From Chloroflexota bacterium (lineage in GTDB: Bacteria > Chloroflexota > Limnocylindria > Limnocylindrales > CSP1-4), in contig JAJYJO010000003.1 of assembly GCA_021789435.1 (NCBI GenBank), positions 10,812 through 74,811 of the forward strand: a stretch of 64,000 bases of DNA. The letters are read 5' to 3'. This document shows, piece after piece, positions 31,098 to 52,770 of this stretch. Every line of letters starts with the position of its first letter. Within the stretch, counting starts at the first letter, position 1. A program made the translations under genes and the position numbers. The notes beneath the pieces are model-generated. The model was not told where the DNA came from, did no database searches, and saw only the letters and a program-made list of their open reading frames with translations.

Positions 31098-31106
31098 CTC
31101 GACCTC

Positions 31107-31901: not shown

Positions 31902-31932
31902 GTCCTTGGCGATCTCCTGGCGATTGAGGGGC

Positions 31933-33015: not shown

Positions 33016-33029
33016 CTGGCTCCGTCCGA

Positions 33030-34036: not shown

Positions 34037-35146
34037 TCAGGCCGGCCCCGGGTGGAGCGCCTCCACGCGCCCGGCGAAGGCGGCGATCTCGGTCGGACCG
34101 TCCAGGCCGCCGATCTCCAGGTCGTAGGCGCGGACCTCGCCCGGCTCAAGGAAGAGCAGCTCTCCCCGTTCCCGCGCGTCCCAGCGGCCGGCATCTCGGT
34201 TGGTGGACGGCTCCATCGCCAGGGCGTAGGTGTCCTCGCCCATCATCCGCCAGACCGTGTGGTGCGGGAGCTGGGCCAGCCGGAAGACCTGGTAGACGCC
34301 GAGCCCCCGGGCGCGGTTGACCACCGCGACGGGGACGGTTCCAGCGGCCTCGGCGGTGAGCTCATGCTCGAAGCAGGCCTCGGTGAAGTCCTTGATCGGC
34401 GCCGAGAGGCGACGGTAGCCCTCGATCGGCACGCCGTAGTCGGTGGTCGTACGGGAGGCCGGCACGAGCAGCTCGGCACCGTCGTCCACGACCGGAAAGC
34501 CGGCGTTGCAGTGGTAGAGCTGCATGTGGGAGGTCCGGTAGTGGCCGACATTCTCGACCTCGTCGTGGATCGTGAAGCGGCTCTCGCCCACCCGCGCCTC
34601 GATCCGGCGGCGGAGCTGGAGGTGCTCGGCGAAGACCTCCGACTGGAGGACCTCGCCTTCGGCCCACAGGACGCACTCGTCGCCCTCCCAGCGCTCGCCG
34701 TAGCCGACGAGCCGGGCCGGCAGCCCTCCGACGCGCCCGTGGAGGCCGTAGGGGACCGTCTTCCTGATGTGTGGCTGGTGGTAGTCCTCGGCGCTGTCCT
34801 CCCCGGGGCCGAGCGTGTGGTCGAGGCCGCAGGTCACGACCATGCCGCCGCCCCAGCCGCGGAACCAGCCCCAGCCCTCCGGCTCGTAGTACCAGGGGCC
34901 GACCACGCCCTGGTTCGACTGCCAGTTGAGGGGCCGACCCGCCAGCTCGCATCGGCCGATGTCGAAAGCCCGGTCGACCACGACGTCGAAGCTGAAGCCG
35001 GTGCCGGTCCTGAACTCCAGCACCCGGACGCCCCGACCCAGGCCGTCGCCGAGGGTCACGAGGCGGACTCCGGCGACCTGCTCCAGCCGTCCGACGCGCT
35101 TCAGCAGCTCGCTCCGTGCGTAGCCGTTTCCCCACAGGGTCGGCAT
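34037..35146 (-). CDS. Aldose 1-epimerase-like protein (DUF4432 type)
   Basis: GVRLVTL.DG..RGVRVLEFRTG.G, TCGLDH, LHGR, LYHCN.GFP, MEP.TN. Confidence 0.85.
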   Translation of the reverse strand: MPTLWGNGYARSELLKRVGRLEQVAGVRLVTLGDGLGRGVRVLEFRTGTGFSFDVVVDRAFDIGRCELAGRPLNWQSNQGVVGPWYYEPEGWGWFRGWGGGMVVTCGLDHTLGPGEDSAEDYHQPHIRKTVPYGLHGRVGGLPARLVGYGERWEGDECVLWAEGEVLQSEVFAEHLQLRRRIEARVGESRFTIHDEVENVGHYRTSHMQLYHCNAGFPVVDDGAELLVPASRTTTDYGVPIEGYRRLSAPIKDFTEACFEHELTAEAAGTVPVAVVNRARGLGVYQVFRLAQLPHHTVWRMMGEDTYALAMEPSTNRDAGRWDARERGELLFLEPGEVRAYDLEIGGLDGPTEIAAFAGRVEALHPGPA

Positions 35147-35197
35147 CTGATCGCCTCCTGTCAGGCCGGTCGGGCCTGCCTCTTCGCCCGCAGAGAG

Positions 35198-35234
35198 ACG
35201 GAGCGGCGTCGGCCGATGGCCGGCGCCGCTCCGT
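35198..35234. other. 17-bp-stem intergenic hairpin within the operon
   Basis: ACGGAGCGGCGTCGGCC-GAT-GGCCGGCGCCGCTCCGT with one non-Watson-Crick pair. Confidence 0.5.
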
Positions 35235-35262
35235 TCGGTGAGGACCTAACTGTGGCCGATCG

Positions 35263-36825
35263 TCACCACTCGCCTTCCATGTCCCGAAGCTCTTCCTCCG
35301 TGGCGGGACGCTCGGAGGCGCCGATTGCGGCCGCCTTCATCCAGTCCTCGCGGCCGGTCGCCTTGAGGTACCAGACGAGGAGGAGGCCGACGATGAACCA
35401 GACGCCGACGAAGATGACGGCGTAGTTGAACGGCGCCGGCGGCAACGTCCAGGCCTGCGGCTGGAAGGCCAGCGGCTCGCCGCCCACGATGTTCAGCGAG
35501 AAGAGCAGGACGGCGATCATGCCCAGGGTGGACAGGACCGGGAAGAGCGCGTGGCTCACCCAGCTGAACTCCTGCGGTCGCTCGCGGCGGTAGAGCATGT
35601 AGGCAGCGATGTTGCCCAGGGTGTAGATGATCAGGACGACGTACCCGATCATGTAGCCGTCCATGTAGTACTGGTTCTGGTAGGCGGTGACGAGCGTCTG
35701 GCCGCCGCTGGCGGCCGGCGTGGCGAAATAGGCGATCGCGGTCAGGCCAATGGCCGTGCAGACGGCCAGCACCCACTGGGCCATGATCGCGTTGACCGGG
35801 GTCTTGCGCTCGGAGTGGACGCGGCCGAACCACTTCGGGAAGGCGCCATCGACGCCCATCCGGTACCACATCCGGGTGCCGACGTTGGCGCAGGCGATCG
35901 AGACGGCGATGACCGAGCTGACGAGCATCACGAGCAGGATGACCCAGGCGTCGCCCCAGAACTTCTTGGCCAGGGTAATGCCGGGCAGCTCGATTCCAGG
36001 CTTGGTCATGCCGGTGTAGTCGTTCGTGCCCCAGCCGCTCATCACGCCCCACTGGACGATGACGATGAAGATCCCGAAGAGGATCACCGAGCCGATGAGG
36101 GCCCGTGGTACGTTTTTGGTCGGGTTCTCGGACTCCTCGGCCATTGGGGCCGAGCCCTCCCAGCCGGTGAAGGCCTGGATGGCGAAGACGGCGGCGATGA
36201 AGAGGCCCGCCGTGCTGCTGGCGTTGCCAGGGTTGAAGGGCGTCAGGTTGAGCCCGCCTGGACCGGGGTTGGCGAGGCCCCAGAGGCCGAGCAGGAGGAC
36301 GATGATCAGCTCGAAGCCGCCGGTGACGATGAGCGTCTTGCCCGAGAGCTGGACACCCAGGTACTGGATCCCGGCGACGATCGACACGATCACCAGGCCG
36401 AAGACGAGCGGGAACCAGTCCGCGAGGGCGCCCGTCCACCCCAGCGAGCTCGAGATCACGTAGCCGCCGAAGACGGTCACGGCCCCGAGCACGAGTGGCG
36501 CGTAGATGATGTTCAGCCACGAGACCAGGAAACCGGCTCGTGGATGGATCCCCCGGGACACGTAGGTGAAGTAGCCGCCGGCCGACGGCACCGCGCGGGC
36601 CAGCTGGGCGAGCACGATCGCGGTGAAGATCACGATCAGGAACGCGATCGGGTAGGCCAGCGGCGCCGCGAGGCCGGCCTGTGACACGACGACGGGCGTG
36701 TAGAAGAGGGCCGCGATGCCCGGCGCGACCATCGTCAGGCTCTGCATGAAGATCGACGGCAGGCGCAGCGCGCCGGCCTTGAGCTGGGTTTCGGCGACGG
36801 TCACCGACGCCGTGTTTCCGGCCAT
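35263..36825 (-). CDS. APC-superfamily amino acid/amine permease
   Basis: About 12 TM segments; PSAGGYFTYV, AFTGWE....AEE..NP.KNVPRA. Confidence 0.92.
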   Translation of the reverse strand: MAGNTASVTVAETQLKAGALRLPSIFMQSLTMVAPGIAALFYTPVVVSQAGLAAPLAYPIAFLIVIFTAIVLAQLARAVPSAGGYFTYVSRGIHPRAGFLVSWLNIIYAPLVLGAVTVFGGYVISSSLGWTGALADWFPLVFGLVIVSIVAGIQYLGVQLSGKTLIVTGGFELIIVLLLGLWGLANPGPGGLNLTPFNPGNASSTAGLFIAAVFAIQAFTGWEGSAPMAEESENPTKNVPRALIGSVILFGIFIVIVQWGVMSGWGTNDYTGMTKPGIELPGITLAKKFWGDAWVILLVMLVSSVIAVSIACANVGTRMWYRMGVDGAFPKWFGRVHSERKTPVNAIMAQWVLAVCTAIGLTAIAYFATPAASGGQTLVTAYQNQYYMDGYMIGYVVLIIYTLGNIAAYMLYRRERPQEFSWVSHALFPVLSTLGMIAVLLFSLNIVGGEPLAFQPQAWTLPPAPFNYAVIFVGVWFIVGLLLVWYLKATGREDWMKAAAIGASERPATEEELRDMEGEW

Positions 36826-36970
36826 AGAGCTCCTCTCTCCTCCGCCCGAGTGGGGCAGGGCATGGTCCGGGGCGGGGCCGAGGGGCCGCCCGCCTCAAGC
36901 GCCTCGGTCGTTCGTTCCGCGTTGCCCTCCTTCCAGTTGTCGGACGATGTCGGCCGCTCTTCCCGGGCCG

Positions 36971-37933
36971 TCAGAAGATCGCGATCGGGTTCCAGGGCGA
37001 GCCCGTCCCGCCGGGGAGTCGGAGCGGGAGCCCCACGACCATGAACTCGAATCGGCCCTCCTCCTCGCAGGCGCGGGCCAGGTCCTCGAACTGCAGGCTG
37101 TCCGAGGCCAGCATGCCCATGGCCACGATCTGCAGCGGGTGGATCGGGTAGATCATCCCCTCGACCACGCTCGGGACCGCCTCGCCGTCCCCGTCCGGCA
37201 GGAATGCCGCGATCCGCCGCTCGTGCATCCAGGGGATCGTGTCGACGTGCAGCCCGGCCTTGCCCGCGCCGACCGGCGGCGGGTCGTTGCTCCACGCGCC
37301 GAGCTCCAGCCGCCGGCGGTGGTGGCCGGTCCGGTAGACGAGGATGTCGCCCTCGCCGAGGTGGACCCCTTCGGCCCGCTCGACCGCCTCCAGCTCGGAC
37401 CGCGTGACGGCCTCCCCGGGCTCGAGCCACTTGACCCCGCGGTAGCGCGGCACATCGAGCAGAACGCCACGGCCGACCAGGCCGTTGCCGTAGTTCGTGA
37501 TGTCCAGCGTCGTGGCGCCCTTGGTCGTCATGACCTCGAGGGCCGGCTTGCCGTTGTAGGTGAGGCCTTTGTAGGAGATGTGGCAGAGCGCGTCGACGTG
37601 CGTGTGGCAGTCGCCGTGACAGGCCATCCCCAGGAAGTCCAGGGCGAACCGGAGCCCGCTGGAGCCGATGTCGATGTCGTGGCCCTGGGTCACGAAGTGG
37701 ATCGCCTGGCTCGGGTTGTCCGGGCCGGCCACCTTGTTGATGGGGATCTCCATCGAGACCCGGCGGCCGGAGCGGACGAGGCGTGCCGCCGCCCGCACCT
37801 TCTCCGGGGTGATGTAGTTGAGGGTCCCGAGCTGGTCGTCGGGGCCCCAGCGGCCCCAGTTCTTGACCGACTCGAAGATCCGGTCGAACTCCTCGAGGCT
37901 GACCTTCGGGGCCGCCGGGACCGGTGTCGCCAT
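36971..37933 (-). CDS. Cyclase-family (kynurenine formamidase-like) metal-dependent hydrolase
   Basis: NWGRWGPDDQLGTLN, HGDCHTHVDALCH, GRGVLLD, GGTGSPWNPIAIF. Confidence 0.88.
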   Translation of the reverse strand: MATPVPAAPKVSLEEFDRIFESVKNWGRWGPDDQLGTLNYITPEKVRAAARLVRSGRRVSMEIPINKVAGPDNPSQAIHFVTQGHDIDIGSSGLRFALDFLGMACHGDCHTHVDALCHISYKGLTYNGKPALEVMTTKGATTLDITNYGNGLVGRGVLLDVPRYRGVKWLEPGEAVTRSELEAVERAEGVHLGEGDILVYRTGHHRRRLELGAWSNDPPPVGAGKAGLHVDTIPWMHERRIAAFLPDGDGEAVPSVVEGMIYPIHPLQIVAMGMLASDSLQFEDLARACEEEGRFEFMVVGLPLRLPGGTGSPWNPIAIF

Positions 37934-37968
37934 CTTGCGCATGCCTCCTCGGCTCGTCGCCCGGTTCG

Positions 37969-38778
37969 CTAGCGGACGCCACCCGGCACGAGCGGCGCGT
38001 CGAGCTGGCCGGGGACCGGCAGGCCGACGGAGTAGGCGCCGTCGACCACGAAGAACGCACCGGCGACGAAGGAGGCGTCGTCGGAGCAGAGGTAGAGGAT
38101 CGGCCGGGCGATCTCCTCCGGCTCGGCGAAGCGGCCCATCGGCGTCCGGTCGAGGAAGACCTTCGACTGGACGGGGTCGTTGATGACGAACCACGAGAGC
38201 CGGGTATTGATGATCCCCGGCGCGATCCCGTTGACTCGGATGCCGTACCTGGCGAGCTCCATGGCGGCGGTGTGCATGATCGCCACCTGGCCGCTCTTCG
38301 AGGTGTTGTAGAAGACGCCCTCCTGTTCGGGCTGGAAGGCGTTCGTGGAGGAGACGATCACGATCGCCCCGCCGTGGCCCTCCCGGACCATCTCCCGGGC
38401 CGACTCCTGGACCGAGAGCCAGGTCCCCTTGAGGTCGATCCCGATCTGCTGCTCCCAGGACTCGTCCGTCCCCTCCAGGAAGGGAACGAAGTCGGCGATC
38501 CCGGCGTTGGCGACCATGATGTCGTGCCGGCCGAAGGCATCGACGCAGGCCTTCACCGCGCCCTGGTTGGCGGCCCGCTGGGAGACGTCGCCCTCGTGGA
38601 CGACACACCTGCCACCCTTGGCCCGGATTCCGGCGGCGACCTCCTCGAGCACGTCGGCGTGCCAGCCGAAGAGCACCACGCCGGCGCCCTCGGCCGCGAA
38701 GGCCTCGGCGGTGGCCCGACCGATCCCCCGGCCGGCTCCGGTCACCACGACGCCCTTGCCCTCGAACCGCTTGTCCAT
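37969..38778 (-). CDS. Short-chain dehydrogenase/reductase
   Basis: TGAGRGIG, ANAGI, YNTSK, RVNGIAPG. Confidence 0.93.
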   Translation of the reverse strand: MDKRFEGKGVVVTGAGRGIGRATAEAFAAEGAGVVLFGWHADVLEEVAAGIRAKGGRCVVHEGDVSQRAANQGAVKACVDAFGRHDIMVANAGIADFVPFLEGTDESWEQQIGIDLKGTWLSVQESAREMVREGHGGAIVIVSSTNAFQPEQEGVFYNTSKSGQVAIMHTAAMELARYGIRVNGIAPGIINTRLSWFVINDPVQSKVFLDRTPMGRFAEPEEIARPILYLCSDDASFVAGAFFVVDGAYSVGLPVPGQLDAPLVPGGVR

Positions 38779-38819
38779 CTGACAATCTCCGATCTGCATG
38801 GCGCGAGGGACGCGACGCT

Positions 38820-39983
38820 TCAGCCGGCGAGCAGTCCGCCGTGGCCGGGCCCGCGCGGGATCACGGGCCAGATGTCGATCACGACGTCATCGCGGACGAC
38901 GTGGTAGGCGTCGTACCAGTTGACGGTCCCGGGCGAGTAGCCGGGGATGAGGGCCACGCTGGCGCCGACCTTGAGCGTGGATCCCTGCCCTGCGGCGAAG
39001 ATGCCGTGCTCCTCGTCAAAGCGGAACGACTCGAGCTCCGGATGGCCGACGATCGTCGCCAGGGCGCCGGCGCCCATCGACTTGTTGCCGGCGTCGACGA
39101 TGACGCGGTCCGGCCGACGGCTGATGACGGTCGCCTGGACGGTGAGGGAGTGGTCGAAGCCCGGGGCCATGTGGCCGTGGAAGTTGTCGATCACGCAGTA
39201 GGTGCCGGCCTGGATCTCGGTGATCCGAGGGTTGGAGGCCGTCCACTCCCAGGTGCCGGTGCCGCCCGCGGAGAGGACCCCGACCGGGATGCCGGCCGCG
39301 GCGATGGCGTCGGCGACGCCGGTGAAGAAGTTCATCGCGGTCTGCTGCTTCTCGAGGCGCAGGTCGTGCTCCGGGGTGAGCGAACAGTGGCCCTCGTAGC
39401 CGGTCAGCCCATCGAAGCGGAGGCCCGGCAGCTCGACGACCCCCCGGGCGAGGGCGACCGCCTCCTCGGCCGTGTCCACCCCGCAGCGGTCCATGCCCGT
39501 GTCCACCTCGATCATGACGCCGAGCGTGCCGCCGGCGGCGACCGCGGCGGCCGAGAGGGCGCGGGCGTTGTCGATCTCGTCCACCGCGACCCGCAGCCTG
39601 GTCCCTCGGGCGAGCTCGGCGAGGGCGCGGATCTTGTCCGGGCCGGCCACGGTATTGACGACGAAGAGGTCGTCGATGCCGGCCTCGGCCATGACCATCG
39701 CCTCCCAGACGGTGGCGGTGGAGAGCCCGAAGGCCCCGGCCTCCACCTGGCGGCGGCCCAGCTCGGGGCTCTTGTGGACCTTGATGTGGGGCCGGATGCC
39801 GGCCGGCAGCTCGCGCAGGCGGGCCGCCATTCGCTCGATGTTGCGCTGGGCCGCGTCGATGTCGAGGACGAGGGCCGGCGTCACCAGCGCCTCGCGCCGG
39901 CGACCGATCGCCCCGCCGTACTGCGCGCGGACCCTTTCCGCCGCGGCTTCGATCGCGCCGCGCCGCTCACGCACCTCGGTCAT
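38820..39983 (-). CDS. Fold-type III PLP enzyme (DSD1 / D-threonine aldolase-like)
   Basis: TPALVLD, RPHIKVHK, EVDTGMDRCG, GYEGH, GGTGT, EIQAGTY, DAGNK, EEHG; ATG 39983. Confidence 0.88.
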   Translation of the reverse strand: MTEVRERRGAIEAAAERVRAQYGGAIGRRREALVTPALVLDIDAAQRNIERMAARLRELPAGIRPHIKVHKSPELGRRQVEAGAFGLSTATVWEAMVMAEAGIDDLFVVNTVAGPDKIRALAELARGTRLRVAVDEIDNARALSAAAVAAGGTLGVMIEVDTGMDRCGVDTAEEAVALARGVVELPGLRFDGLTGYEGHCSLTPEHDLRLEKQQTAMNFFTGVADAIAAAGIPVGVLSAGGTGTWEWTASNPRITEIQAGTYCVIDNFHGHMAPGFDHSLTVQATVISRRPDRVIVDAGNKSMGAGALATIVGHPELESFRFDEEHGIFAAGQGSTLKVGASVALIPGYSPGTVNWYDAYHVVRDDVVIDIWPVIPRGPGHGGLLAG

Positions 39984-40237
39984 CACAGCTCCCTGGTGAG
40001 CGGCCCGTCCATGCGTGGCATCGAGCGGGGCGACCGGCCGGCTCCCCACCCGAACGTGTGGCGCATGGATCTGCCGACGGGTCTCGGCCGGAGGTCCGGG
40101 TGGCGGTTCCACCCGGACCCGCCCGAAACTCGGGGCCGACCCGAGCCTCCCTCCGCCGCCCGGGCCCGTCGGCCCCGATCTCCCGAGAACCGCCGACGTC
40201 CCGATCCCGATCGGAGCGGAGACATCGATCCGCGGAG

Positions 40238-40267
40238 AGAATAGGCACCGTTGCCCGTCGGCGTCAA
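40238..40267 (-). promoter_or_regulatory. Sigma70-type promoter for the PLP enzyme-permease operon
   Basis: TTGACG (40267-40262), 18-nt spacer, TATTCT (40243-40238). Confidence 0.55.
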
Positions 40268-40329
40268 GAAGTTGCGACCGCCCGCACGTCCCTGCCCCCG
40301 GAGCCTTCCCCACGCCGGCTGGGGCGTCC

Positions 40330-41310
40330 TCAGGACACCCGGTCCAGCAGGGCGAGCGCGGTCGCCTCGTCGGTCACGAGCACCTCCAGGCAGCCGCTCG
40401 CCAGCGCTCCGCGGATCGCCTCGACCTTGGCCGCCCCCGCGGCGATGCCGACGACGGTGGGAATGGCCGCCAGCTCGGGCCACTCGATGGCGACGGTGCG
40501 CTCGTCGAGCTGGCCGGCCGGCCGGCCGGCGGCATCGAAGAAGCGCGAGTTCATGCTGCCGACCGCCCCGGCGGCGAGGAGCCGGAGGCGGTCCTCGGTC
40601 GTGATCTGGGGGGCCCGCAGGAGGGTAGCCTCGGGTCGCATCTCGCCGATCCCGACCAGGGCGAGCTCACTGTTCGCGGCAAGGGCAAGGGCCGCCCGGA
40701 CGGAGCTGTCGCTGAGGATCGCCGTCCTGATCGACGGCGAATCCACGATCGAGGGCGCATGGAGGTAGTGGACGCGGCTGCCCGGGTAGAGGCCGGCGAG
40801 GTGGCGGACGAGCTCGTGGCCCTGGATGCCCGGCACCGGGTCGCTGAGGCCCCCGGCGAGTTGGGTGATCAGCAGGTCCGAGACGATGCCCGGCTCCATG
40901 AACCGGATGACCGCCGAGAGCGTGGTCCCCCAGCCGACGCCGATCCGCATGCCGGTCCGCAGGAGCGTCCCGACATACTCCGCCGCGACCGCCGCCAGCG
41001 CCTGCAGGTCGTCGCGCTCATCGGTCGGGGCCACGATGGTCCGCGACAGCCGATACTGGTTCGCCAGCTGCCGCCCAAGCTCCACGTTGCGGCGCCGGGG
41101 CGGCCGGATCTCGACCCGGACGATCCCCTCGTCACGGGCGCGCTTGAGGTAGCGCGAGACGGTCGAGGGGTCCAGCCCGAGGTCGCGGGCGATCTGCACC
41201 TGGGTCCAGCCGAGCAGATAGAACCGTCGGGCCACCTCGGTCAGGTGGTCGACGCCGCGCACCGCCGCCGCCGGCCGGCCTGGTCCGTCCTCGGTCTCCA
41301 TCGCCGCCAC
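40330..41310 (-). CDS. SorC/LsrR-family sugar-phosphate-binding transcriptional regulator
   Basis: VARRFY..G.TQ.QIARDLG....VSRYL..ARDEGIVRV; IGVGWGTT, LVGIG, LVTDE. Confidence 0.92.
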   Translation of the reverse strand: MAAMETEDGPGRPAAAVRGVDHLTEVARRFYLLGWTQVQIARDLGLDPSTVSRYLKRARDEGIVRVEIRPPRRRNVELGRQLANQYRLSRTIVAPTDERDDLQALAAVAAEYVGTLLRTGMRIGVGWGTTLSAVIRFMEPGIVSDLLITQLAGGLSDPVPGIQGHELVRHLAGLYPGSRVHYLHAPSIVDSPSIRTAILSDSSVRAALALAANSELALVGIGEMRPEATLLRAPQITTEDRLRLLAAGAVGSMNSRFFDAAGRPAGQLDERTVAIEWPELAAIPTVVGIAAGAAKVEAIRGALASGCLEVLVTDEATALALLDRVS

Positions 41311-41457
41311 CCCGTTTCCGGATCCGGGTCCCAGCTCCCGGCGTTCACGGTCCGCAGGCTACACCGCCACCCCGCTCGGTCGAAGGCCCGATCGTCACCG
41401 GCCGGGCCCCGGCTGGAGCCTGGGCCGTCGGTCGCGGCCGCCCATCGGGCCGAGTAT

Positions 41458-41492
41458 GGCACGGAGTTGACCGGACTGGCACAATCTTTCCG
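41458..41492 (+). repeat. 35-bp promoter/operator element, copy 1
   Basis: GGCACGgagTTGACcgGACTGGCACAATCTTTCCG; 30/35 identical to the reverse complement of 48471-48505. Confidence 0.85.
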
Positions 41493-41590
41493 CCGACGGC
41501 CAGTCGGCTCCCGTCCCGGCCCCGGGACGAAGGGCCGCGCCGTTCGCGCCCGACGCCCGGGTTCCCCGGCGAGCGTGTGGAGGTGGACCA

Positions 41591-42115: not shown

Positions 42116-42150
42116 CGCCGACGCGCCCCGCGTGATCCGGGGGCACATGC

Positions 42151-42957
42151 ATGCGTTTCGAGGCCCTGCGGGCGCGAGCCTGCGCCGCCAACCGGGCGAT
42201 CGCCGACGCCGGCCTGGTCATCCTGGCCTTCGGCAACGCGAGCGCCCTGGACCGGGCCGCCGGCGTCGTGGCCATCAAGCCGAGCGGAGTGCCCTGCGCG
42301 GGTCTCCGCCCCGATGAGGTGGTGGTCGTCTCGCTGGCCGACGGCCAAATGATCGAGGGTGAGGGGCGGCCGTCCTCCGACACGCCGACGCACCTGGCCC
42401 TCTACCGGGCCTTCCCGCGGATCGGCGGCGTCGTTCACACCCACTCACCCCAGGCCACGGCCTGGGCCCAGGCCGGCCGGCCCATCCCGTGCCTGGGGAC
42501 CACCCACGCCGATCACTTCCACGGTCCGGTCCCGGTCACCCGGCCGCTGCAGGCGGCCGAGGTGGCCGGCGACTATGAGGCCGGCACGGGCCGCGTGATC
42601 GTCGAGTGCGCCATCGGCGGCGGGCTCGATCCGGACGAGGTGCCGGCAGTACTCGTCGCCTCACACGGCCCCTTCACCTGGGGCCCGGACGTCGAGGGCG
42701 CCGTCGAGAACGCGATCGCGCTCGAGGCGGTGGCCGGCATGGCCCTGCGCACGATCCAGCTGGCGCCCGACGCGAGGGCGATCGCCGGCGGCCTCCTCGA
42801 GCGACACTACCGGCGCAAGCACGGCGCGGCCGCCTACTACGGCCAACCGGCCGGGAGCCCGGCCAGGGGGGTCGGGCCGCTCAGCTCAGACCCGCGACCC
42901 CATACAGCGGACGACCTCGAGCGGCTCACGGCCGGTCCGGAAGGCATGGGCGAGTGA
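42151..42957 (+). CDS. araD: L-ribulose-5-phosphate 4-epimerase
   Basis: GNAS, IKPSG, PSSDTPTH..LY, VHTHS, GTTHADHF, SHGPFTWG, HG..AYYGQ. Confidence 0.9.
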   Translation: MRFEALRARACAANRAIADAGLVILAFGNASALDRAAGVVAIKPSGVPCAGLRPDEVVVVSLADGQMIEGEGRPSSDTPTHLALYRAFPRIGGVVHTHSPQATAWAQAGRPIPCLGTTHADHFHGPVPVTRPLQAAEVAGDYEAGTGRVIVECAIGGGLDPDEVPAVLVASHGPFTWGPDVEGAVENAIALEAVAGMALRTIQLAPDARAIAGGLLERHYRRKHGAAAYYGQPAGSPARGVGPLSSDPRPHTADDLERLTAGPEGMGE

Positions 42958-43986
42958 GGCGGCGCAGGCGAAGGTGTCGCCCCGCCGGACGGCGAAGCTG
43001 CCGAGGTCGCCCTCGATCGCCCCGTCGCCGGCGGTGACCACCCCGACGTAGTAGCGGCCGTCCTCCAGGGCCAGCTCGGTCTGGACGTCCACGCGGCTCG
43101 CGTCGAAGAACGGGGGCCTGCTCGTCGCCGAAGAGGCGCACCTCCCGGTTGCCGCCCGTGTCACGCACGACCGTCGGCACCTGGCGCGCCCGGTCCAGGG
43201 CGGCCTGCCGGTCCGTCGGCGTGTAGTCGATCATCTCCAAAGCGAGGTCCCAGCCGAGACCCATCGTCGCGCCGTCCTGGTCCACCCCCGAGGTACTCCA
43301 CTCCGGGATGACGATGAAGTCGGTCGGCTCCTGGATCTCGATGAAGAGGAGGCGTGGGCCCAGGAAATGGGGCACACTCGCGGTCGCCACGAAGACGTCG
43401 CCCGGCTGGACTTCCGTGTGGTGGAGCATGGCCCGCAGCTCGGCCACGTCCTGCCGCTCGACCGCCGCCCGGAAGTCGTCCTTGGTTGCCCCGGGCTGGA
43501 ATCCGATCCCGGCATGGGCCGGCTCGGCCCATTGCCCGGCGTCTCGAGCAGGATCCAAGCCTCCTGCTTGCCGAAGCGCGACCCCAGGTGCCGCTCGGCC
43601 CAGGCTCGGGAGGGGTGGGCATGGAGCGGGACCGGGCCGGAAGGCGCCAGCAGCTTGACCAGGACGCCCGTGGTCACCCCCCAGCGCTCGACGAAGGGCG
43701 CTCCAAGCATCTCCTCGGGGTAGCGCTCGACGAGGGAACGCAGGGTGAAGGGTCCCAGGCCCTCGATCTCCACCCGGCTCAGCCCCTGTGGGCGGCCATC
43801 CGGGTCGGCGTTGCCCGCCTCCGTTACCGAGCCGACCCAGTCCTCCGACCACCAGTCGTCGGGGCTGCCTCCCAGGCCGCGGAACCGGCGGGTCAGCGAG
43901 CCACCCTCGTAGAAGCGGTAGAGGGGATGGTAGGCGAGCGACAGAGGCCGCCGGATGGCATCGTGTAGAGCATCGTGGTCGGGCAT
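42886..43986 (-). pseudogene. Cupin sugar-phosphate isomerase (mannose-6-phosphate isomerase type I-like), interrupted by two frameshifts
   Basis: SEDW, LVKLL, PLHAHP, GKQEAW in one frame; PGDVF...PH...EIQEPTD in another (shift near 43529); C-terminus back in the first frame (shift near 43114). Confidence 0.75.
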
Positions 43987-44070
43987 GCGCGCATGCTCGC
44001 ACGACCGGGCGGGGGATGGCTGACGCCCGGGCGGTGCCCGGGCGTCAGAAAGGTCGACCTGGCCCGCCAG

Positions 44071-44799
44071 TCAGAACGAGACGAGGGCGGGCGCCACCTG
44101 GGTCAGCATGAAGCGGGCGTTCTCGGCGGCCGCCTTGCCGTCGAAGACCGCGCTGCCGGTCACGATGATGTTCGGCCCCATCGCCGCGACGCGGGCCACG
44201 TTCTCGCGGGTGATGCCCCCGTCCACCCCGAGCAGGATCGGCCGACCGGAGCGGGCGATCACCTCCTTCGCCTCGGCCAGCCGTCGCTCGCTCGACTCGA
44301 GGAAACGCTGGCCGCTCCAGCCGGGGTTGATGGCCAGGACCAGGACGTACTCCAGCTCGTCGAGCAGCGGCTCGATCGCGGCCACGGGGGTTCCCGGGTT
44401 GAGGGCGACACCCCGGATGATCCCCCGCTCCGGGTCGTTGGCGTTGGTCGCCACGCCGAGCGCCTGGAGGACACGGTGGGGATGGCGGGTACTCTCGACG
44501 TGGAAGGTGACCAGGTCCGCGCCCGCCTTCACGAAGTCGCCGAGCTTCTCGAGCGGCTCGTCGATCATGAGGTGGGCGTCCTTGAGCAGGACGGGCGAGC
44601 GGATCGCCCGGATGAGGGGCGGGCCGACGGTCATCGTCGGGCAGAAGACGCCGTCCATGACGTCGATGTGGACCAGTTCCACGCCGGCGTCCTCCAGGAG
44701 CCGGACCTCGGAGCCGAGGTTGGCCAGGTCCGCGGTGATGATCCCGACCGTGAGGTGCGGCCGGCCGTCGAGCAGGGGCAGATGCGCGGTGGTCGCCAT
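44071..44799 (-). CDS. Ribulose-phosphate 3-epimerase family protein (LsrE-like)
   Basis: HIDVMDGVFCP..TVGP, DAHLMI, FHVES, LNPGTP, NPGWSGQ, VDGGI, VTGSAVF. Confidence 0.88.
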   Translation of the reverse strand: MATTAHLPLLDGRPHLTVGIITADLANLGSEVRLLEDAGVELVHIDVMDGVFCPTMTVGPPLIRAIRSPVLLKDAHLMIDEPLEKLGDFVKAGADLVTFHVESTRHPHRVLQALGVATNANDPERGIIRGVALNPGTPVAAIEPLLDELEYVLVLAINPGWSGQRFLESSERRLAEAKEVIARSGRPILLGVDGGITRENVARVAAMGPNIIVTGSAVFDGKAAAENARFMLTQVAPALVSF

Positions 44800-44808
44800 G
44801 GCCGGCCC

Positions 44809-45708
44809 CTAGACCCCGAGGGGCTCCGGGACGGGGGCGTGGCGGAGGGTCTCGTAGAGCTCGAGGGCCTGGCGCGGCGGCAGGCCCTCGTGGACGGCCT
44901 TCCGGACCGCGGCGAGCATGGCCCCGGGCGCGTCGCTCTGGAAGATGTTGCGGCCCATGTCCACGCCCGCGGCGCCCTCCTGGACCGCCCGGTGAGCCAT
45001 CTCGAGCGCCTCGAGCTCCGGCAGCTTCTTGCCGCCGGCCATCACGATCGGGACCGGGCAGGAGGCGGTGACCGTCTCGAAGTCCTCATCGCAGTAGTAG
45101 GTCTTGACCACCTGGGCGCCGAGCTCGGCGATGATCCGGCAGGCCAGGCGCAGGTACTTGGCGTCCCGTGTCAGCTCCCGGCCGACCGCGGTCACCCCGA
45201 GGACCGGCAGGCCGTAGCGCAGCCCGGCGTCGACGAGGCGGGTCATGTTGTGGACGGTCTTGGTCTCCATGGGGCCGCCGACGAAGACCTGGACGCCGAC
45301 GCCGCAGGCGCCGAGGCGCAGGGCGTCCTCGACGTCGAGGGCGATCTCCTCGTCGGAGAGTTCCTTGAGGATCGAAGGGCCGCCGGACGCCCGCAGGAAG
45401 AAGGGGACGCGGCTCGCCGGGGGCACGACCGAGCGCAGGATGCCCCGGGTCAGGAAGAGCGCGTCGACCTGCGGCACGAGCGGCAGGATGCTGACGTCGA
45501 CTCGCTCGAGACCGGTCGTCGGACCCTGGAAGTAGCCGTGGTCGATGGCCAGCATGACCGTCCGCCCCGAGGCCGGGTCGAAGACCCGGGCGAGGCGGTT
45601 CTGCATCCCCCAGTCGTAGGCGCCTGAGCCCTTCAGGAAGAAGGCCTCGCGGCGCTGGGGGACGCCCTCGTAGAACTGCTTGAGTTCGCTGCTGTCGGCT
45701 TCCGGCAT
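44809..45708 (-). CDS. lsrF: 3-hydroxy-5-phosphonooxypentane-2,4-dione thiolase
   Basis: FFLKG....[50 protein letters not shown]. Confidence 0.92.
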
Positions 45709-45778
45709 CGGGTTCCTCCCGGCTGATGGTCCCCTGGCTGGGCGATGGATGACGCGGCGAGCGGTCGGTCGGGCCGGC

Positions 45779-47344
45779 TCAGGCGCCGGCGGGCCACCAG
45801 AGCGGCCGGACGAGGCCACTCTCGGTGATGGCGAGGAGGCGCAGGTAGACCTCCCGCCAGCGTTCGTAGAGCTGTGCGTAGGCGGCGTGCGTGGTGGAAT
45901 CCGGCTCGTAGGTCTTCTCGAAGCGGGCGACGCGTTCGGCCAGGCCTGCCAGGTCGTCGTGGAGGCCGGCCCCGACCGCCGCGCAGAGGGCTGCCCCGAG
46001 GGCCGTCGATTCCCTGACGACCGGCACTTTGACCCGGACCCCGAGGACGTCCGCGACGATCTGCGGCCAGAGCCGGCCCTTGGAGCCCCCACCGGTGAAG
46101 ACGATCTCCTCGACTGGCTGGCCGGTCAGGCTCTCGATGATGCGGAGATGCCCCAGCGAGGCGTAGGCGGCGCTCTCCTCGACGGCACGGATGCATTCCC
46201 GCCGCCCGGAACGGGCCGGGTTCTCGATGTTGAAGCCGATGAAGGCGGGCGACGACTGGACCCAGCGCTTGGCATCCATCACGTTTGAGAAGACCGGCAC
46301 GATGCCGTTGGCGCCGGGGGCCACGGCGGCCGCCTCCTCCTCCATGACCACGAACGGGTCCACGTCACGCCGGGCGGCCTCTGCCTTCTCGAAGTCGCAG
46401 AAGGCATCGCGGAACCAGCGCATCGTGAGCCCGCCGTAGAAGGCGATCCCTTCGGCCATCCACTGGCCCGGCAGGACGTGGCAGAGCGTGCGCAGACGCG
46501 CCTCCGGATCGATCAGCGGGCGATCCACCACCACGGTCGTCTGCCAGAAGCTGCCCCCGACGAGGGTGACCTCGCCGGGGCGAGTCCGGCCGATGCCGAG
46601 CAGCCCGAGCTGGGTGTCGGCGCCACCGACGACGACCGGCGTCCCCTCGGAAAGGCCGGTCTCGGCGGCCGCACGGGCGGTCAGGGGCCCGAGCACCGTG
46701 CCCGGATCGCGGACCGTCGGGAAGACGTCGGGCGAGAGCCCGCACAGCTCGATGATCTGCGGCGACCACGTCGCGCGGGCCAGGTCGAACATCCCCGAGC
46801 TTGCGCCCACCGAGGGATCGGTCCCATACACCCCGGTCAGCTTCGTGAGGACCCAGTCGCTGAGCATGCCGGCGTGGGCCACGCGGGCGAAGAGTTCCGC
46901 CTCGTGGCGCTGGATCCAGAGCAGGCGGGCCGGGGAAGTGATCGAGACCCAGTCGCCCCCCTTGTCGTAGATCCGCCGGGCGGCCCCGGAGCGGACCAGC
47001 TCGGTCGCCTCCTCCGCCGCCCGCGAGTCGACGTTCGGGCAGGCCCAGAGCTCCCGGCCGTCGGCGTCGTACAGGACGATCCCCTCGCGCATGCTGGTGC
47101 TGCTGACCGCGGCGATCGCGGAGCCGGACAGGCCGCTCTCGGCGAGCGCCTCGCGGGTGCAGGCGCAGATGAGCTGCCAGTTGCCCGCCGTGTCGAAGAC
47201 CTGCGAGCCCGGCACCCCCGGGAGCGCGGCGTGCGACCACTCTCGCTGGGCCATCGCCACCTGGTTGCCGTCGCCATCGAAGACCAGGGCGCGGCAGCTC
47301 CCGGTCCCCAGATCCACCGCCATCACGTACTGGCGCTCAGGCAT
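45779..47344 (-). CDS. lsrK: FGGY kinase, autoinducer-2 kinase-like
   Basis: [52 protein letters not shown], terminal LWWPAGA; adjacent to lsrF. Confidence 0.82.
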
Positions 47345-48416
47345 GGGCGGCCACCTTCTCCAGCGTGGCCCGGTTGGCCACGTTCAGGAGCGGCTCGCCG
47401 GTGGCCAGCCGCTCGATCTCCGCGGCGGCCATCTCCCCGCCGTGGGCCAGGGTCTCCTGGGTGGCGCCGCCGATGTGGGTGGCGAGGACCACGTTGGGGG
47501 AATCGAGGAGGCGATGGCGCCGTCCGAGCTCGGGTGGCTTGCTCAGATCGGGCGCCTTCACGACGTCGAAGGCGGCTCCCGCCAGGTGCCCGGAGCGGAG
47601 GGCCTCGTGGACGGCGTCCTCGTCGAGGAGCGTGTCGCGGGCCGTGTTGATCACGAACGCGCCGTCCTTCATCCGGGCGACCTGCTCCCGGCCGATCATC
47701 CCCCGGTTGTCGGCCGTGGCTCGGGCGTGGAGGGAGACGAAGTCGGCAGCCTCGAGGAGGTCGTTCAGGTCCGTCGGCTCCGCGCCGACCTCCCGGATGC
47801 GGGCTGGGTCGACGAACGGGTCGTGGGCCAGGACCCGCATGCCGAGGGCTCGTGCCACGACGGCGACCCGCCGGCCGATCTGGCCGAACCCGACCAGCCC
47901 AAGGACGTGGCCTTCCAGGTCGTGACCCAGCCACTTCGCACCCTCGTAGTTGTCCCGACCAAGCTCGCCCCCGCCCTCGAGATACCGCATCACCTCCGGC
48001 AGCCGGCGGGCGAGCATGACCATGAAGGCGATCGTCAGCTCGACCACGGCCTGGGCGTTCTTGCCGGGGGTGACGACGACGGGGATGCCGCGCTCCGTGG
48101 CGGCTTCCATGTCGACGTTGACCGGGCCGCCGCGGGCGACGCAGATCAGGCGCAGCTCTGGGGCGGCGTCGATTACCTCGCGGGTCACCGGCGCGCCCTG
48201 GACCACGAGCACCTCCGTCCGATCGAGACGGTCGATCACCTGGCGCGGGCTGCCAAGGAACTCGCGGATTCGCTGCTCCGACGGCGTCGTCGGGCGGAAG
48301 TCGGGCTCGTCGTCGACGTCGAAGCAGGTGACGTCATGTCGGTCGCAAAGCCGCTCGATCGCCGGGCCGAGCGCCCGCCAGGGGCAGAAAGAGTCACCGG
48401 CCACCAGGATCTTCAT
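47337..48416 (-). CDS. D-isomer-specific 2-hydroxyacid dehydrogenase family protein
   Basis: RGGPVNVD, PGKNA.AV.E, GLVGFGQIG, SLHAR, INTAR, HIGGAT. Confidence 0.9.
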   Translation of the reverse strand: MKILVAGDSFCPWRALGPAIERLCDRHDVTCFDVDDEPDFRPTTPSEQRIREFLGSPRQVIDRLDRTEVLVVQGAPVTREVIDAAPELRLICVARGGPVNVDMEAATERGIPVVVTPGKNAQAVVELTIAFMVMLARRLPEVMRYLEGGGELGRDNYEGAKWLGHDLEGHVLGLVGFGQIGRRVAVVARALGMRVLAHDPFVDPARIREVGAEPTDLNDLLEAADFVSLHARATADNRGMIGREQVARMKDGAFVINTARDTLLDEDAVHEALRSGHLAGAAFDVVKAPDLSKPPELGRRHRLLDSPNVVLATHIGGATQETLAHGGEMAAAEIERLATGEPLLNVANRATLEKVAAHA

Positions 48417-48470
48417 CGTTCGGCCCCCTGCGCATCATGATTCGGGGCACTGACGCCCGCCGGAGGCGCC

Positions 48471-48505
48471 CGGAAAGATTGTGCCAGTCACGTCAAGGTC
48501 GTGCC
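48471..48505 (-). repeat. 35-bp promoter/operator element, copy 2 (inverted relative to copy 1)
   Basis: Minus strand GGCACGaccTTGACgtGACTGGCACAATCTTTCCG, 54 nt upstream of ATG 48416. Confidence 0.85.
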
Positions 48506-48540
48506 GCGGCGCGGGGCACCGGCGCGACCGATGGCCCGGG

Positions 48541-49329
48541 TCACAGCTCCGCGTTGACGATGAAGCCCGCGTCGGTCAGCAGGGTCGCGCAGGTGACATA
48601 ACTGGCGTCGTCGCTCAGCAGGAAGGCGATGGCGCCCGCCATCTCCTCCGGCTCGCCCGGCCGATGGATCGCGATCCGGTCGATGTAGTACTTCCACACC
48701 TCGGGTGCGGCGTCGAACATGGGGGCGCTCATGTTGGTCTTGATCCAGCCCGGCTCGACGGCATTCACCCGGATCCCATGGGCGCCGACAACGGAGCCGA
48801 GGGCCTTAGCCCACATCGAGATGCCGCCCTTCGTCGCGCAGTAGGCCGTCTGGTATGGCGCGCCGACGTGGGCCGAGATCGAACTGACGCAGACGATCGC
48901 GCCGCCATTGCCGAAGGCCTTCATCTGCTTGGCGGCCTCGGTCGTGACGACCCACGTGCCGCGCAGGTTCGTCTCGCAGATCGCATTGAAGTCCTCGAGC
49001 GTCGCCTCGTCCCAGGCCAGGAACGGGTTGATCGCGGCGTTCGAGACGACGTAGTCGAAGCGGCCGCCGCGCTTGGCGACCTCCTGGACCATCTCGACGA
49101 CCTGCTGCGGGTTCCGCATGTCGGCGACGACCGGGAAGCCCTGGCCGCCGGCCTCCTTGATCCGCCGCAGCGTCTCGGTCGGGTCGCCGGTCGGCTTCTG
49201 ATTGACCCCGACGAGGGCACCCTCTGCGGCCAGGCGGACCGCGATCGCCTGGCCGATGCCGTTGGTGGCACCGGTGACGAGGGCGACCTTCCCCTCGAAT
49301 CGCTTGCCGGTGATCGGAGTGGCTGCCAT
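48541..49329 (-). CDS. Short-chain dehydrogenase/reductase
   Basis: TGATNGIG, SNAAI, YCATK, RVNAVEPG; ATG 49329 after AGGAGG. Confidence 0.92.
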   Translation of the reverse strand: MAATPITGKRFEGKVALVTGATNGIGQAIAVRLAAEGALVGVNQKPTGDPTETLRRIKEAGGQGFPVVADMRNPQQVVEMVQEVAKRGGRFDYVVSNAAINPFLAWDEATLEDFNAICETNLRGTWVVTTEAAKQMKAFGNGGAIVCVSSISAHVGAPYQTAYCATKGGISMWAKALGSVVGAHGIRVNAVEPGWIKTNMSAPMFDAAPEVWKYYIDRIAIHRPGEPEEMAGAIAFLLSDDASYVTCATLLTDAGFIVNAEL

Positions 49330-49362
49330 GCCGGTCCTCCTTCTCCGGCCCACCGGGCCGGG

Positions 49363-50121
49363 TCAGTGCATCCCGCGGCCGCCCGCCACGATGAGCAGCT
49401 CGCCGGTGATGAAGTCGGCGTCCGCGGAGGCGAGGAAGAGGGCCGCGGCGGCGATGTCGCCGGGTGTGCCCCACCGCCGCAGCGCCGTCTCGTCGAGGAT
49501 CCGCTGCTGGGTCTCGGGATCGATCTCCTCCACCATGTCGGTCCGGATCCAGCCCGGGCAGATCGCGTTCACCGTGATCTGGGGCCCGAACGCGAGCGCC
49601 ATGGCCTTGGTCAGGCCGTTCAGACCGGCCTTCGAGACCACGTACTCCGTGAAACGCATCGCCGAGGGGTGGTAGAGACCGGAGTTCGAGGACACGTTGA
49701 TGATCCGGCCGGCCCCCTGGCGGATCATCACCGGCGCGACCTCCTTGGAGCAGAGGTAGGCGCCCTTGAGATTGACGTCGATGGTCCGGTCCCAGTCGCC
49801 CTCGGTGGTCTCGAGGACGCCCTTGGCGACCATGACGCCGGCGTTGTTGACGAGGATGTCGACCCGGCCGAAGCGGTCGAGCGCGGCTCGGACCAGCCGC
49901 CGGACCTCGGCGCTCTGCGAGACGTCGGCCTGGACCGCGAGCGCCTCGCCGCCGGCCGCCTCGATCGCCGTGCCGGCGGCAGCCGCCCCCTCCCCTCCCT
50001 GGATGTAGTTGACGACGACCCGCGCACCTTCGGCGCCGAACCGCTCCGCGATCGCCCGGCCGATCCCCCGCGACGCACCGGTGACGATCGCGACCTTGCC
50101 TGCCAGACGCTGCTCGGTCAT
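49363..50121 (-). CDS. Short-chain dehydrogenase/reductase
   Basis: TGASRGIG, NNAG, YVVSK, VNAICPG; ATG 50121. Confidence 0.92.
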   Translation of the reverse strand: MTEQRLAGKVAIVTGASRGIGRAIAERFGAEGARVVVNYIQGGEGAAAAGTAIEAAGGEALAVQADVSQSAEVRRLVRAALDRFGRVDILVNNAGVMVAKGVLETTEGDWDRTIDVNLKGAYLCSKEVAPVMIRQGAGRIINVSSNSGLYHPSAMRFTEYVVSKAGLNGLTKAMALAFGPQITVNAICPGWIRTDMVEEIDPETQQRILDETALRRWGTPGDIAAAALFLASADADFITGELLIVAGGRGMH

Positions 50122-50331
50122 GCCGTGCCCTCCCAACCCGCAACGGACTCCGACGTGCTCGGGCGCCGACCGCCCTGTCCCTTCCGGCGCCACCTGCGCC
50201 GCGATTCTATGGCGGCGGGCGGGCGACCGCAGGCCGGGTGTGGCAATACCTTGAGCGGTGGCGCACGATCCTTCCGCGTCTCCCCTCAGGGCGCTCGCCT
50301 GCCGCCTCGGCCGGGCCGTGGTCGGAGTCGG

Positions 50332-51570: not shown

Positions 51571-51621
51571 GGTGCCTCCTGCGGCTTCAGCCGGCGGGCC
51601 GCGGGCGACCCCGCCGCGCAC

Positions 51622-52659: not shown

Positions 52660-52770
52660 GGCCGGGAGCCTGTCGGCCGGGGATGTCGGCCGATGGGAGC
52701 TGGCAGGACGGGGCGGCGGGCACCCCCGGACGCGCTCATTCCATGATGCGCCGGCCGGCCGGCCCTCCTC

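Follow-up and report, generated by a model that had tools for sequence, protein, structure and literature searches.

In Escherichia coli, LsrK phosphorylates 4,5-dihydroxy-2,3-pentanedione (DPD), LsrG isomerises it, and LsrF cleaves the product to acetyl-CoA and dihydroxyacetone phosphate (DHAP). To our knowledge, LsrK and LsrF have been studied almost solely in the uptake and quenching of the autoinducer-2 (AI-2) signal by enteric bacteria. Other systems that bear comparison are the E. coli frl (fructoselysine) operon, in which an APC permease, a sugar kinase and a 3-epimerase serve an amino-substituted keto-sugar, and the tetronate catabolism (LtnD/OtnI/OtnK/OtnC) that Zhang et al. reportedly described in 2016, which is said to run through a dehydrogenase, a carbonyl-shifting isomerase, a kinase for the terminal hydroxyl, and C-C cleavage adjacent to a keto-phosphate to give DHAP. 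The present analysis concerns a set of lsrK- and lsrF-type genes at positions 34037-50193 of a 64,000-nt stretch of DNA (the window: G000:C116:10812-74811) from a soil bacterium known from its genome alone. About an even chance is given to the reading that these positions hold a co-regulated catabolic island for an amino-bearing, sugar-like compound, which would end in LsrK/LsrF-type cleavage and would not serve quorum sensing. New here are a conserved operon in 37 loci, a 24-nt cis element, and a G-Y-x-P subfamily of fold-III pyridoxal 5'-phosphate (PLP) enzymes.

The assembly comprised 2.85 Mb in 156 contigs with approximately 72% G+C and was 91% complete, and absences from the genome are reported as "not found" and not as proof. 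Because the G+C content was high, genes were called from third-position G+C first and by family scans afterwards. All of the gene families listed in a preliminary description of the window were present, at much the same positions, with the limits of the island set here at 34037-50193. The island was laid out as three transcription units on two strands. On the plus strand, the VOC and AraD genes ran divergently from the SorC-family regulator gene, and the minus-strand lsrK unit converged on AraD. The minus-strand genes on the lsrK side were ordered SDR3, SDR2 (SDR, short-chain dehydrogenase), 2-hydroxyacid dehydrogenase, LsrK, LsrF, RPE-family gene, and PMI-like cupin. The minus-strand unit led by SorC contained, in order, SorC, the PLP enzyme, SDR1, the cyclase-family hydrolase, the APC permease and, last, DUF4432.

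The FGGY kinase gene (45779-47344, minus strand; PF00370 and PF02782) encoded a protein that scored 621.1 bits on NF008187 (autoinducer-2 kinase; cut-off 528) and 226 bits on the XylB model (cut-off 380). It was 44% identical to E. coli LsrK, 42% identical to an LsrK from a Lacticaseibacillus plasmid, and 30% identical to a polyol-type FGGY kinase from Sagittula. A quick maximum-likelihood tree of 31 rows (midpoint root, long branches flagged) included those 24 of the 37 related kinases described below that had a full-length, stop-free match. In this tree the island-type kinases and the two canonical LsrKs formed one clade on a long stem (98% SH-aLRT), four other FGGY kinases, two of them paralogues from the genome of the window, fell outside it, and the canonical pair was a sub-branch inside the clade, not an outgroup. 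Clustering with xylulokinases had been named as a point to check; by model scores, identity and the quick tree the kinase grouped with LsrK, and on these sequence comparisons it is assigned as a true LsrK orthologue.

The LsrF orthologue, a class I aldolase-fold thiolase (44809-45708, minus strand), scored 452.5 bits on NF006081 (cut-off 297) and was 57% identical to E. coli LsrF. For LsrF, PMC2728841 names D57, H58, K203, G226, G227, D251, G253, and R254 as residues that bind ligand or take part in catalysis; equivalents of all eight were retained in the window. Orthology and conserved catalytic residues are thus in place, and thiolase activity is predicted from them. The SorC-family regulator (40330-41310, minus strand, divergent from the VOC gene; PF04198, 212 bits) was 30% identical to E. 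coli LsrR, with 126.4 bits on the LsrR model NF011947 (cut-off 486) and 202 bits on the DeoR(Bacillus) model (cut-off 420). The RPE-family epimerase gene (44071-44799, minus strand; PF00834) held the position that lsrE has in Salmonella, and its product was 34% identical to Salmonella LsrE, with 111.4 bits on the PRK14057 epimerase model (LsrE; cut-off 530) and 169 bits on NF004076 (cut-off 165). Since a second RPE gene, 38% identical, was found on contig C69, the island copy is an extra paralogue. The preliminary description had spoken of lsrK-lsrF-lsrE-like genes with a SorC/LsrR-type regulator: LsrK, LsrF and the SorC family stand, while LsrE orthology does not and the LsrR cut-off was missed.

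A kinase scan of 185,579 species genomes returned 40 loci, 37 of which (L005-L041) carried LsrK orthologues. These 37 loci came almost entirely from metagenome-assembled genomes of uncultured soil lineages: Chloroflexota (Limnocylindria, Chloroflexia, Ktedonobacteraceae, and Leptolinea), Dormibacterota, and Actinomycetota, with one locus labelled Bathyarchaeia. Genes were tallied by tblastn with the island proteins (E ≤ 1e-15, at least 40% query coverage, best hit per place), and many of the loci ended at contig ends. In total, 33 of the 37 loci contained the VOC gene, 31 the 2-hydroxyacid dehydrogenase (mostly immediately upstream of lsrK), 27 the PLP enzyme, 26 LsrF, 19 SorC, and 17 the RPE-family gene. 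The cyclase was present in 12 loci; the APC permease, DUF4432 and an SDR1-like gene in 11 each; a RuBisCO-like protein in nine; an ApnL-like lactonase, SDR2 and SDR3 in six each; AraD in three; and the PMI-like cupin in two. The VOC protein was at least 45% identical in 29 loci.

Loci L005, L006 and L010 shared a colinear operon, VOC-(AraD)-dehydrogenase-LsrK-LsrF-RPE-PLP-(SDR)-cyclase, with SorC divergent, and in L006 and L010 the operon was extended by APC and DUF4432. It follows that the window has a rearranged form of a single unit, which there is split into two "halves", and the sub-operons, whose co-occurrence in other genomes had been in question, are joined in one operon in relatives. 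No published description of the cluster was found in full-text searches of the literature, supplementary files not covered, and the excerpted text of a survey of Lsr homologues (PMC3420918) contained nothing like it.

Further genes flanked some of the related loci. In L007 (16707-21469), L008, L012, L015, L020, L028, L035, L036, and L041, genes for a RuBisCO-like protein and for three fold-III PLP paralogues in tandem ran towards the lsrK operon convergently; most of these nine loci also had a cyclase gene, and LsrF was not found in three of them (L015, L028, and L035). The best model for the RuBisCO-like protein was 2,3-diketo-5-methylthiopentyl-1-phosphate (DK-MTP-1-P) enolase, at 364 bits (cut-off 409). 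Genes for an RpiB/DerI-like protein, Dak1, Dak2, triose-phosphate isomerase and a DeoR regulator adjoined the island in 11-12 of the 37 loci (L010 3267-7210; L015 6100-8257), a neighbourhood that by its gene content resembles an erythrulose/dihydroxyacetone-type cluster. In the genome of the window, the genes of this set were located on other contigs.

Comparison with relatives also revealed a 24-nt cis element in the window. The first copy, TTGACCGGACTGGCACAATCTTTC, lies in the SorC/VOC divergent region (41467-41490, plus strand), 100 nt before the VOC gene, and the second, TTGACGTGACTGGCACAATCTTTC, lies 56 nt upstream of the start codon of the dehydrogenase (48473-48496, minus strand), ahead of the dehydrogenase-lsrK unit. 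The SorC-PLP-SDR1-cyclase-APC-DUF4432 unit begins from the same divergent region as the VOC-side copy. The consensus derived from SorC/VOC intergenic regions of relatives was TTGAC-N6-(T/G)GCACAATCTT(T/G)C, and L005, L006, L010, L019, L021, L039, and L040 all kept the element between SorC and either the VOC gene or the dehydrogenase gene. With up to one mismatch allowed, these two sites were the only matches in the 2.85-Mb genome, and a reversed-pattern control gave none. A sigma-54 reading of the element (TGGCAC-N5-TT) was rejected, as relatives have TGCAC, and a search of the GC-rich intergenic regions for inverted- or direct-repeat operators gave nothing interpretable. Control is probably exerted through the SorC regulator, which would bind the shared 24-nt promoter/operator element.

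The fold-III PLP enzyme (38820-39983, minus strand; PF01168 and PF14031) had as its closest solved relatives D-threonine aldolases (4v15, 207 bits) and D-3-hydroxyaspartate aldolase; on the BhcC model it scored 238 bits (cut-off 690). In alignment, the PLP lysine was kept, as were residues equivalent to Arg157 and Tyr187. For the D-threonine aldolase AxDTA, the Mn ligands are given in PMC4401734 as His347 and Asp349 and the proposed base as His193. Tyr349 and Pro351 of the island enzyme align with the His347/Asp349 positions. The G-Y-[SAGT]-P form of this motif occurred in every cluster-linked orthologue with that region recovered; of the three tandem paralogues beside the RuBisCO-like gene, two had it as well, and additional PLP copies in Actinomycetota loci had the H-x-C form. 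The residues that would mark a standard aldolase or dehydratase are gone. The alignment indicates a distinct G-Y-x-P subfamily in which the D-threonine-aldolase metal site has been lost.

Association of this subfamily with LsrK was assessed in 201 genomes drawn evenly from the phylum of the window, including G043, G150, and G178 (flagged unpublished). LsrK scored above cut-off in three of these genomes (G000, G096, and G114), G043, G150 and G178 not being among them, and in none of seven other genomes of the window's own family. The same model matched 12 of 14 control genomes, none above cut-off, E. coli included, so that three of 201 is perhaps a lower bound (six-frame scoring or the control strain may understate the scores). 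Among the best 29 loci with PLP-enzyme homologues in the same kind of sample, G-Y-x-P was present in G096 and G114 only; the remaining 27 had H-x-C or H-x-D, or, in two cases, Y-S-D. Counting the enzyme of the window itself (G000), the G-Y-x-P form was thus seen in the three LsrK-positive genomes of the sample and in no other, and the subfamily appears to travel with LsrK. Because of these tallies, the island is considered rare and of patchy occurrence, and it probably moves between soil lineages.

That unrelated operons came to lie side by side by chance in this one assembly would be in keeping with three transcription units on two strands and with the disrupted reading frame of the PMI-like cupin gene. 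It is scarcely credible given synteny in 37 loci from three phyla, a shared element unique in the genome, and a PLP subfamily found with LsrK. The same evidence (colinear relatives, cis element, PLP subfamily) bears out the earlier proposal that the Lsr-like core and the other catabolic genes belong together, as one unit.

Neither lsrACDB nor lsrG had been seen in the window, and neither was present on the rest of its contig. In whole-genome tblastn, E. coli LsrB found no counterpart, and the E. coli Lsr proteins gave, for LsrACDB, generic ABC matches alone, on other contigs. The Pfam LuxS model was without a match in the genome; the same model matched five of the 14 control genomes. The sole match to E. 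coli LsrG was an ABM-family gene on contig C44 (59572-59910, matched at 59623-59910; L003 14570-14911), 45% identical, whose product scored 87.2 bits on the LsrG model NF007791, below the cut-off of 135 that E. coli LsrG passes with 191.8 bits. It neighboured an iron alcohol dehydrogenase and unrelated genes, was unlinked to the island, and did not have the 24-nt element near it. The rest of the genome, where lsrB, lsrG and luxS had been proposed as search targets, thus contributed this one LsrG-like gene and no lsrB or luxS match. None of the 40 related loci was matched by LsrG or LsrB of E. coli or by the ABM protein that the genome itself encodes, and with the C44 protein as query an ABM orthologue was not found in the two Actinomycetes genomes among five relatives. 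A nutrient role, as first suggested, is more likely than quorum sensing in view of a genome in which LuxS and LsrB were not found and of 40 loci in which LsrB and LsrG were not found.

A rival use of the same chemistry would be the scavenging of exogenous AI-2 (DPD) from neighbours by LsrK, LsrF and either the VOC protein or the unlinked ABM protein, the amino-acid genes being a separate, co-travelling pathway. LsrK and LsrF scores above the NCBIfam equivalog cut-offs would fit such scavenging, as would the LsrG-like ABM gene. No LsrB-type or other sugar ABC importer was found in the island or in the 40 loci, however, and the sole transporter is the APC permease. Strict co-occurrence of the PLP subfamily with LsrK in the sample examined, and a cis element that precedes both the VOC and lsrK units, with the PLP/APC unit starting from the same divergent region, also argue against two separate pathways, and the dehydrogenase has no place in known DPD processing. 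Scavenging is considered quite unlikely.

The VOC-superfamily protein (41591-42115, plus strand; PF13669) had a mean column identity of 68% across 21 orthologues. Residues Q12, E64 and E149 were invariant and H98 nearly so; by family analogy, these four are putative metal ligands. An AlphaFold model (predicted local distance difference test 88.9) showed the paired beta-alpha-beta-beta-beta fold, and its best Foldseek match was 3gm5, a putative methylmalonyl-CoA epimerase (E 2.6e-11), followed by characterised methylmalonyl-CoA epimerases, with glyoxalase I lower. On the methylmalonyl-CoA epimerase equivalog the protein scored 32 bits, below the cut-off of 115. Enzymes of the methylmalonyl-CoA epimerase and glyoxalase type shift protons on metal-bound enolates or enediolates. 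By analogy, such shifts would be the chemistry for converting phosphorylated DPD (P-DPD) to 3-hydroxy-2,4-pentanedione-5-phosphate (P-HPD) or for epimerising P-HPD at C3, and the modelled fold makes the VOC protein a candidate enediolate isomerase or epimerase. Either the VOC protein or the cupin had been put forward as a replacement for LsrG. The VOC protein, with an epimerase-like fold and presence in nearly all of the related loci, is the better candidate; the cupin gene is frame-disrupted and was syntenic in two loci.

The 2-hydroxyacid dehydrogenase (47337-48416, minus strand; PF02826 and PF00389), the first gene of the lsrK unit, is of the D-isomer-specific, PGDH/PdxB-like type; its best NCBIfam and solved-structure matches were phosphoglycerate dehydrogenases, every one below cut-off. 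1-Deoxy-xylulose 5-phosphate is the acetyl analogue of 4-phosphoerythronate, the substrate of PdxB. A pathway can be proposed from these assignments. The APC permease would import an amino-bearing, sugar-like compound, perhaps an amino-sugar acid or an amino acid. A five-carbon skeleton of the 1-deoxy-pentulose or DPD-like type would then be made from it by the PLP enzyme together with the SDRs, the mutarotase-like DUF4432 protein and the cyclase-family hydrolase. The class of substrate first suggested, and the order of hydrolysis, deamination and oxidation suggested with it, are conjectural. The SDRs resemble sugar 1-dehydrogenases, and the lactonase-type hydrolase is the cyclase here and ApnL-like in six relatives. 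The LsrK orthologue would phosphorylate the terminal hydroxyl, orthology being established and the substrate presumed. Family chemistry and synteny suggest that the PGDH/PdxB-like dehydrogenase would oxidise a carbonyl-adjacent hydroxyl. The VOC protein would shift or epimerise the alpha-hydroxy-diketone through a metal-bound enediolate, the job of LsrG in E. coli, and the RPE paralogue may set the stereochemistry at C3. Finally, the LsrF orthologue would cleave a P-HPD-type compound to DHAP and acetyl-CoA. As substrates, S-ribosylhomocysteine, pentose Amadori compounds, 2-amino-2-deoxy-aldonates and amino-6-deoxy-hexonates were weighed; each fits some of the conserved genes and none fits all.

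The dehydrogenase also points towards carboxylate substrates, since the phosphoglycerate/PdxB-type enzymes nearest to it use phosphorylated 2-hydroxy acids. In a tetronate-type pathway for acid sugars or hydroxy-amino acids, the substrates of the LsrK and LsrF homologues would be 2-oxo-tetronate and 3-oxo-tetronate 4-phosphate, the carboxylate analogues of DPD and P-HPD. These might come from 4-hydroxythreonine or another 2-amino-2-deoxy-aldonate. A 2-oxo acid would be formed by the PdxB-like dehydrogenase, the VOC protein would move the carbonyl, and LsrF would be a Schiff-base decarboxylase yielding DHAP and CO2. Such a pathway would run parallel to the OtnK/OtnI/OtnC route. The SDRs and the lactonase-type genes (the cyclase, and the ApnL-like gene of the six relatives) are suggestive of aldonate formation, the APC permease and PLP enzyme suit an alpha-amino acid substrate, and RuBisCO-like proteins, which flank nine of the loci, are of a kind used in acid-sugar pathways. 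In plasmid records, homologues of the VOC protein were 31-36% identical at best; a distant one (36%) lies approximately 5 kb from a four-carbon acid-sugar kinase gene and pdxA on an Azospirillum plasmid, which is suggestive only. The kinase, however, sits inside the LsrK clade at 42-44% identity, and greater divergence would be anticipated had its substrate shifted from neutral diketone to charged acid; every cited LsrF residue is kept as well, and the RPE paralogue would have no role. A tetronate-type pathway is therefore regarded as unlikely.

Several observations weigh against the proposed island function as a whole. LsrF was not found in 11 of the 37 loci, among which at least L014, L015, L028, L032, and L035 extend for several kb beyond lsrK on its downstream side. 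The RPE-family gene, APC permease, cyclase and DUF4432 were each present in under half of the loci, many of which end at contig ends. An LsrG-like ABM gene exists elsewhere in the genome, with orthologues that were unlinked in three of five relatives' genomes searched, so that the isomerase could be a protein other than VOC. The Mn ligands given for D-threonine aldolase in PMC4401734 are gone from the PLP enzyme, and Leu is aligned at the proposed base His193. Genes named lsrF by NCBI also occur in other contexts, on a Sagittula plasmid (L084) and an Aureibacter plasmid (L085), with products 55-59% identical to the LsrF of the window. The Sagittula cluster is polyol-like and comprises a ribose-type ABC transporter, a SorC regulator, a glycerol-3-phosphate-dehydrogenase-like gene, an FGGY kinase and a class II aldolase-like gene; the Aureibacter lsrF adjoins DhaKL (dhaK/dhaL). 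The NCBIfam LsrF "equivalog" name thus spans several contexts, and LsrF homology alone leaves the substrate unfixed. For a P-HPD-type substrate, membership of the kinase in the LsrK clade is a stronger argument than LsrF homology.

The polyol-like context of lsrF-named genes raises a further alternative, a Sagittula-like route for pentoses or pentitols. The LsrF homologue would there be an ordinary ketose-1-phosphate aldolase giving DHAP and an aldehyde, and the RPE and AraD proteins would supply the pentose-phosphate pathway with pentulose phosphates. The AraD-type class II aldolase-family protein (42151-42957, plus strand; PF00596), which is L-ribulose-5-phosphate 4-epimerase-like, scored above cut-off on the subfamily model NF006047 (301.7 against 257 bits) and below it on the equivalog TIGR00760 (286 against 389), and RPE and DUF4432 are sugar-handling families. 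AraD is an accessory gene present in just three loci, though, and the kinase is nearer to canonical LsrKs (42-44% identity) than to the Sagittula kinase (30%). As the PLP enzyme and APC permease would be left unexplained as well, this pathway is held to be very unlikely.

The remaining genes of the island were assigned as follows. The DUF4432 gene (34037-35146, minus strand; PF14486, 315.7 bits) encoded an aldose-1-epimerase-like protein, the best solved relative of which was 3ty1, a "hypothetical aldose 1-epimerase". Its homologues on plasmids of cultured Deinococcus and Sinorhizobium were in generic sugar clusters that offered no substrate clue. The APC-superfamily amino-acid/amine permease (35263-36825, minus strand; PF00324 and PF13520), the presumed importer, had weak NCBIfam matches, with a best score of 84 bits (cut-off 557) and 33 bits on the FrlA model (cut-off 800). 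The cyclase-family metal hydrolase (36971-37942, minus strand; PF04199, 59.9 bits), a possible lactonase or amidase, began at an ATG with GAGGAGG ahead of it, and its best solved relative was 5ibz, an "uncharacterized protein". In the six loci that have it, the ApnL-like lactonase appears from its position to occupy the place that the cyclase has in L005 and L010. SDR1 (37969-38799, minus strand; PF13561 and PF00106) scored 218.9 bits on NF005559 (cut-off 215) and 202 bits on the L-rhamnose 1-dehydrogenase model (cut-off 400). The latter was the top NCBIfam model for SDR2 (48541-49353, minus strand; PF13561), at 205 bits. SDR3 (49363-50193, minus strand; PF13561) scored 251 bits on NF005559.

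All of the island genes were intact other than that of the accessory PMI-like cupin (42886-43986, minus strand). Against the intact orthologue in L007, tblastn split this gene into three colinear segments (frames -1, -3, and -1), with frame changes near 43528-43537 and 43110-43121. The changes were compensating, lay approximately 415 nt apart and were also visible in the frame plot of third-position G+C; they may reflect a pseudogene or an assembly artefact.

Further genes lay on either side of the island. Directly beside it, window positions 30465-33384 (minus strand) contained three 2-oxoacid:ferredoxin oxidoreductase genes (POR_N, TPP_enzyme_C, and POR gamma domains), a trio with no counterpart among the 37 related loci. 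Positions 50332-53949 (minus strand) contained a 4-hydroxyphenylpyruvate dioxygenase (402 bits; cut-off 277), an FAH-family hydrolase and a protein that matched homogentisate dioxygenase weakly (36 bits; cut-off 511). These matches suggest a cluster of the tyrosine/homogentisate type whose ring-cleavage enzyme is atypical; no synteny with the island was found in relatives.

Taken together, the conserved partner genes suggest that LsrK/LsrF chemistry was recruited, or originally evolved, for nutrient catabolism with new partner enzymes. If the catabolic reading of the island is correct, "AI-2 chemistry" gains a nutritional role and possibly an evolutionary origin, and lsrK and lsrF annotations in metagenomes should be taken with caution as signs of AI-2 sensing. 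The island would also supply candidates for new activities (the VOC protein as a non-homologous LsrG substitute, the PdxB-like dehydrogenase, and the metal-free relative of D-threonine aldolase), and the 24-nt element with its regulator would be a handle for finding the inducer. A bolder version, to which a clearly minor share of probability is given, would see a LuxS-independent route for an amino acid-like nutrient through phosphorylated DPD-type diketones. It would require three new activities: a metal-free G-Y-x-P PLP enzyme, a PdxB-like dehydrogenase that forms a diketone phosphate, and a VOC P-DPD/P-HPD isomerase or epimerase in place of LsrG. Since the canonical LsrKs are a sub-branch among those of soil lineages, the enterobacterial AI-2 system, with its "signal-removal" function, would in this bolder version have branched off from a nutrient pathway that is older than it.

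Compared with the enterobacterial Lsr system (lsrRK / lsrACDBFG(E)), the island shares LsrK and LsrF orthologues, a divergent SorC-family regulator, an RPE-family gene after lsrF as with Salmonella lsrE, and the presumed end products DHAP and acetyl-CoA. It differs in having no LsrACDB or linked LsrG, in a genome without a luxS match, and in a regulator and an epimerase that are not orthologues of LsrR and LsrE; its conserved partners are instead the VOC protein, 2-hydroxyacid dehydrogenase, fold-III PLP enzyme and APC permease. The plasmid-borne lsr operon of Lacticaseibacillus paracasei (NZ_CP064315, L086 768-9858) likewise has LsrK, a SorC-type regulator and LsrF without an annotated lsrG. 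It is without the VOC, dehydrogenase, PLP and APC genes and has features of its own, namely a ribose-type ABC importer and a small cupin and RbsD beside lsrK. An importer operon of this kind implies that LsrG is replaceable even in importer-type systems.

With D-threonine aldolase, D-3-hydroxyaspartate aldolase and D-serine dehydratase, the PLP enzyme of the island shares the domain pair PF01168 and PF14031 and the PLP lysine; at the positions of His347 and Asp349 (Cys in dehydratases) it has Tyr and Pro. The E. coli frl operon has an FrlB-type deglycase that the island is without, and the kinase and epimerase families of the two differ. Tetronate catabolism reportedly differs in using a DUF1537 kinase, a TIM-barrel isomerase and a class II aldolase-type decarboxylase on carboxylate substrates with no amino group, and it follows the same logic as the pathway proposed for the island.

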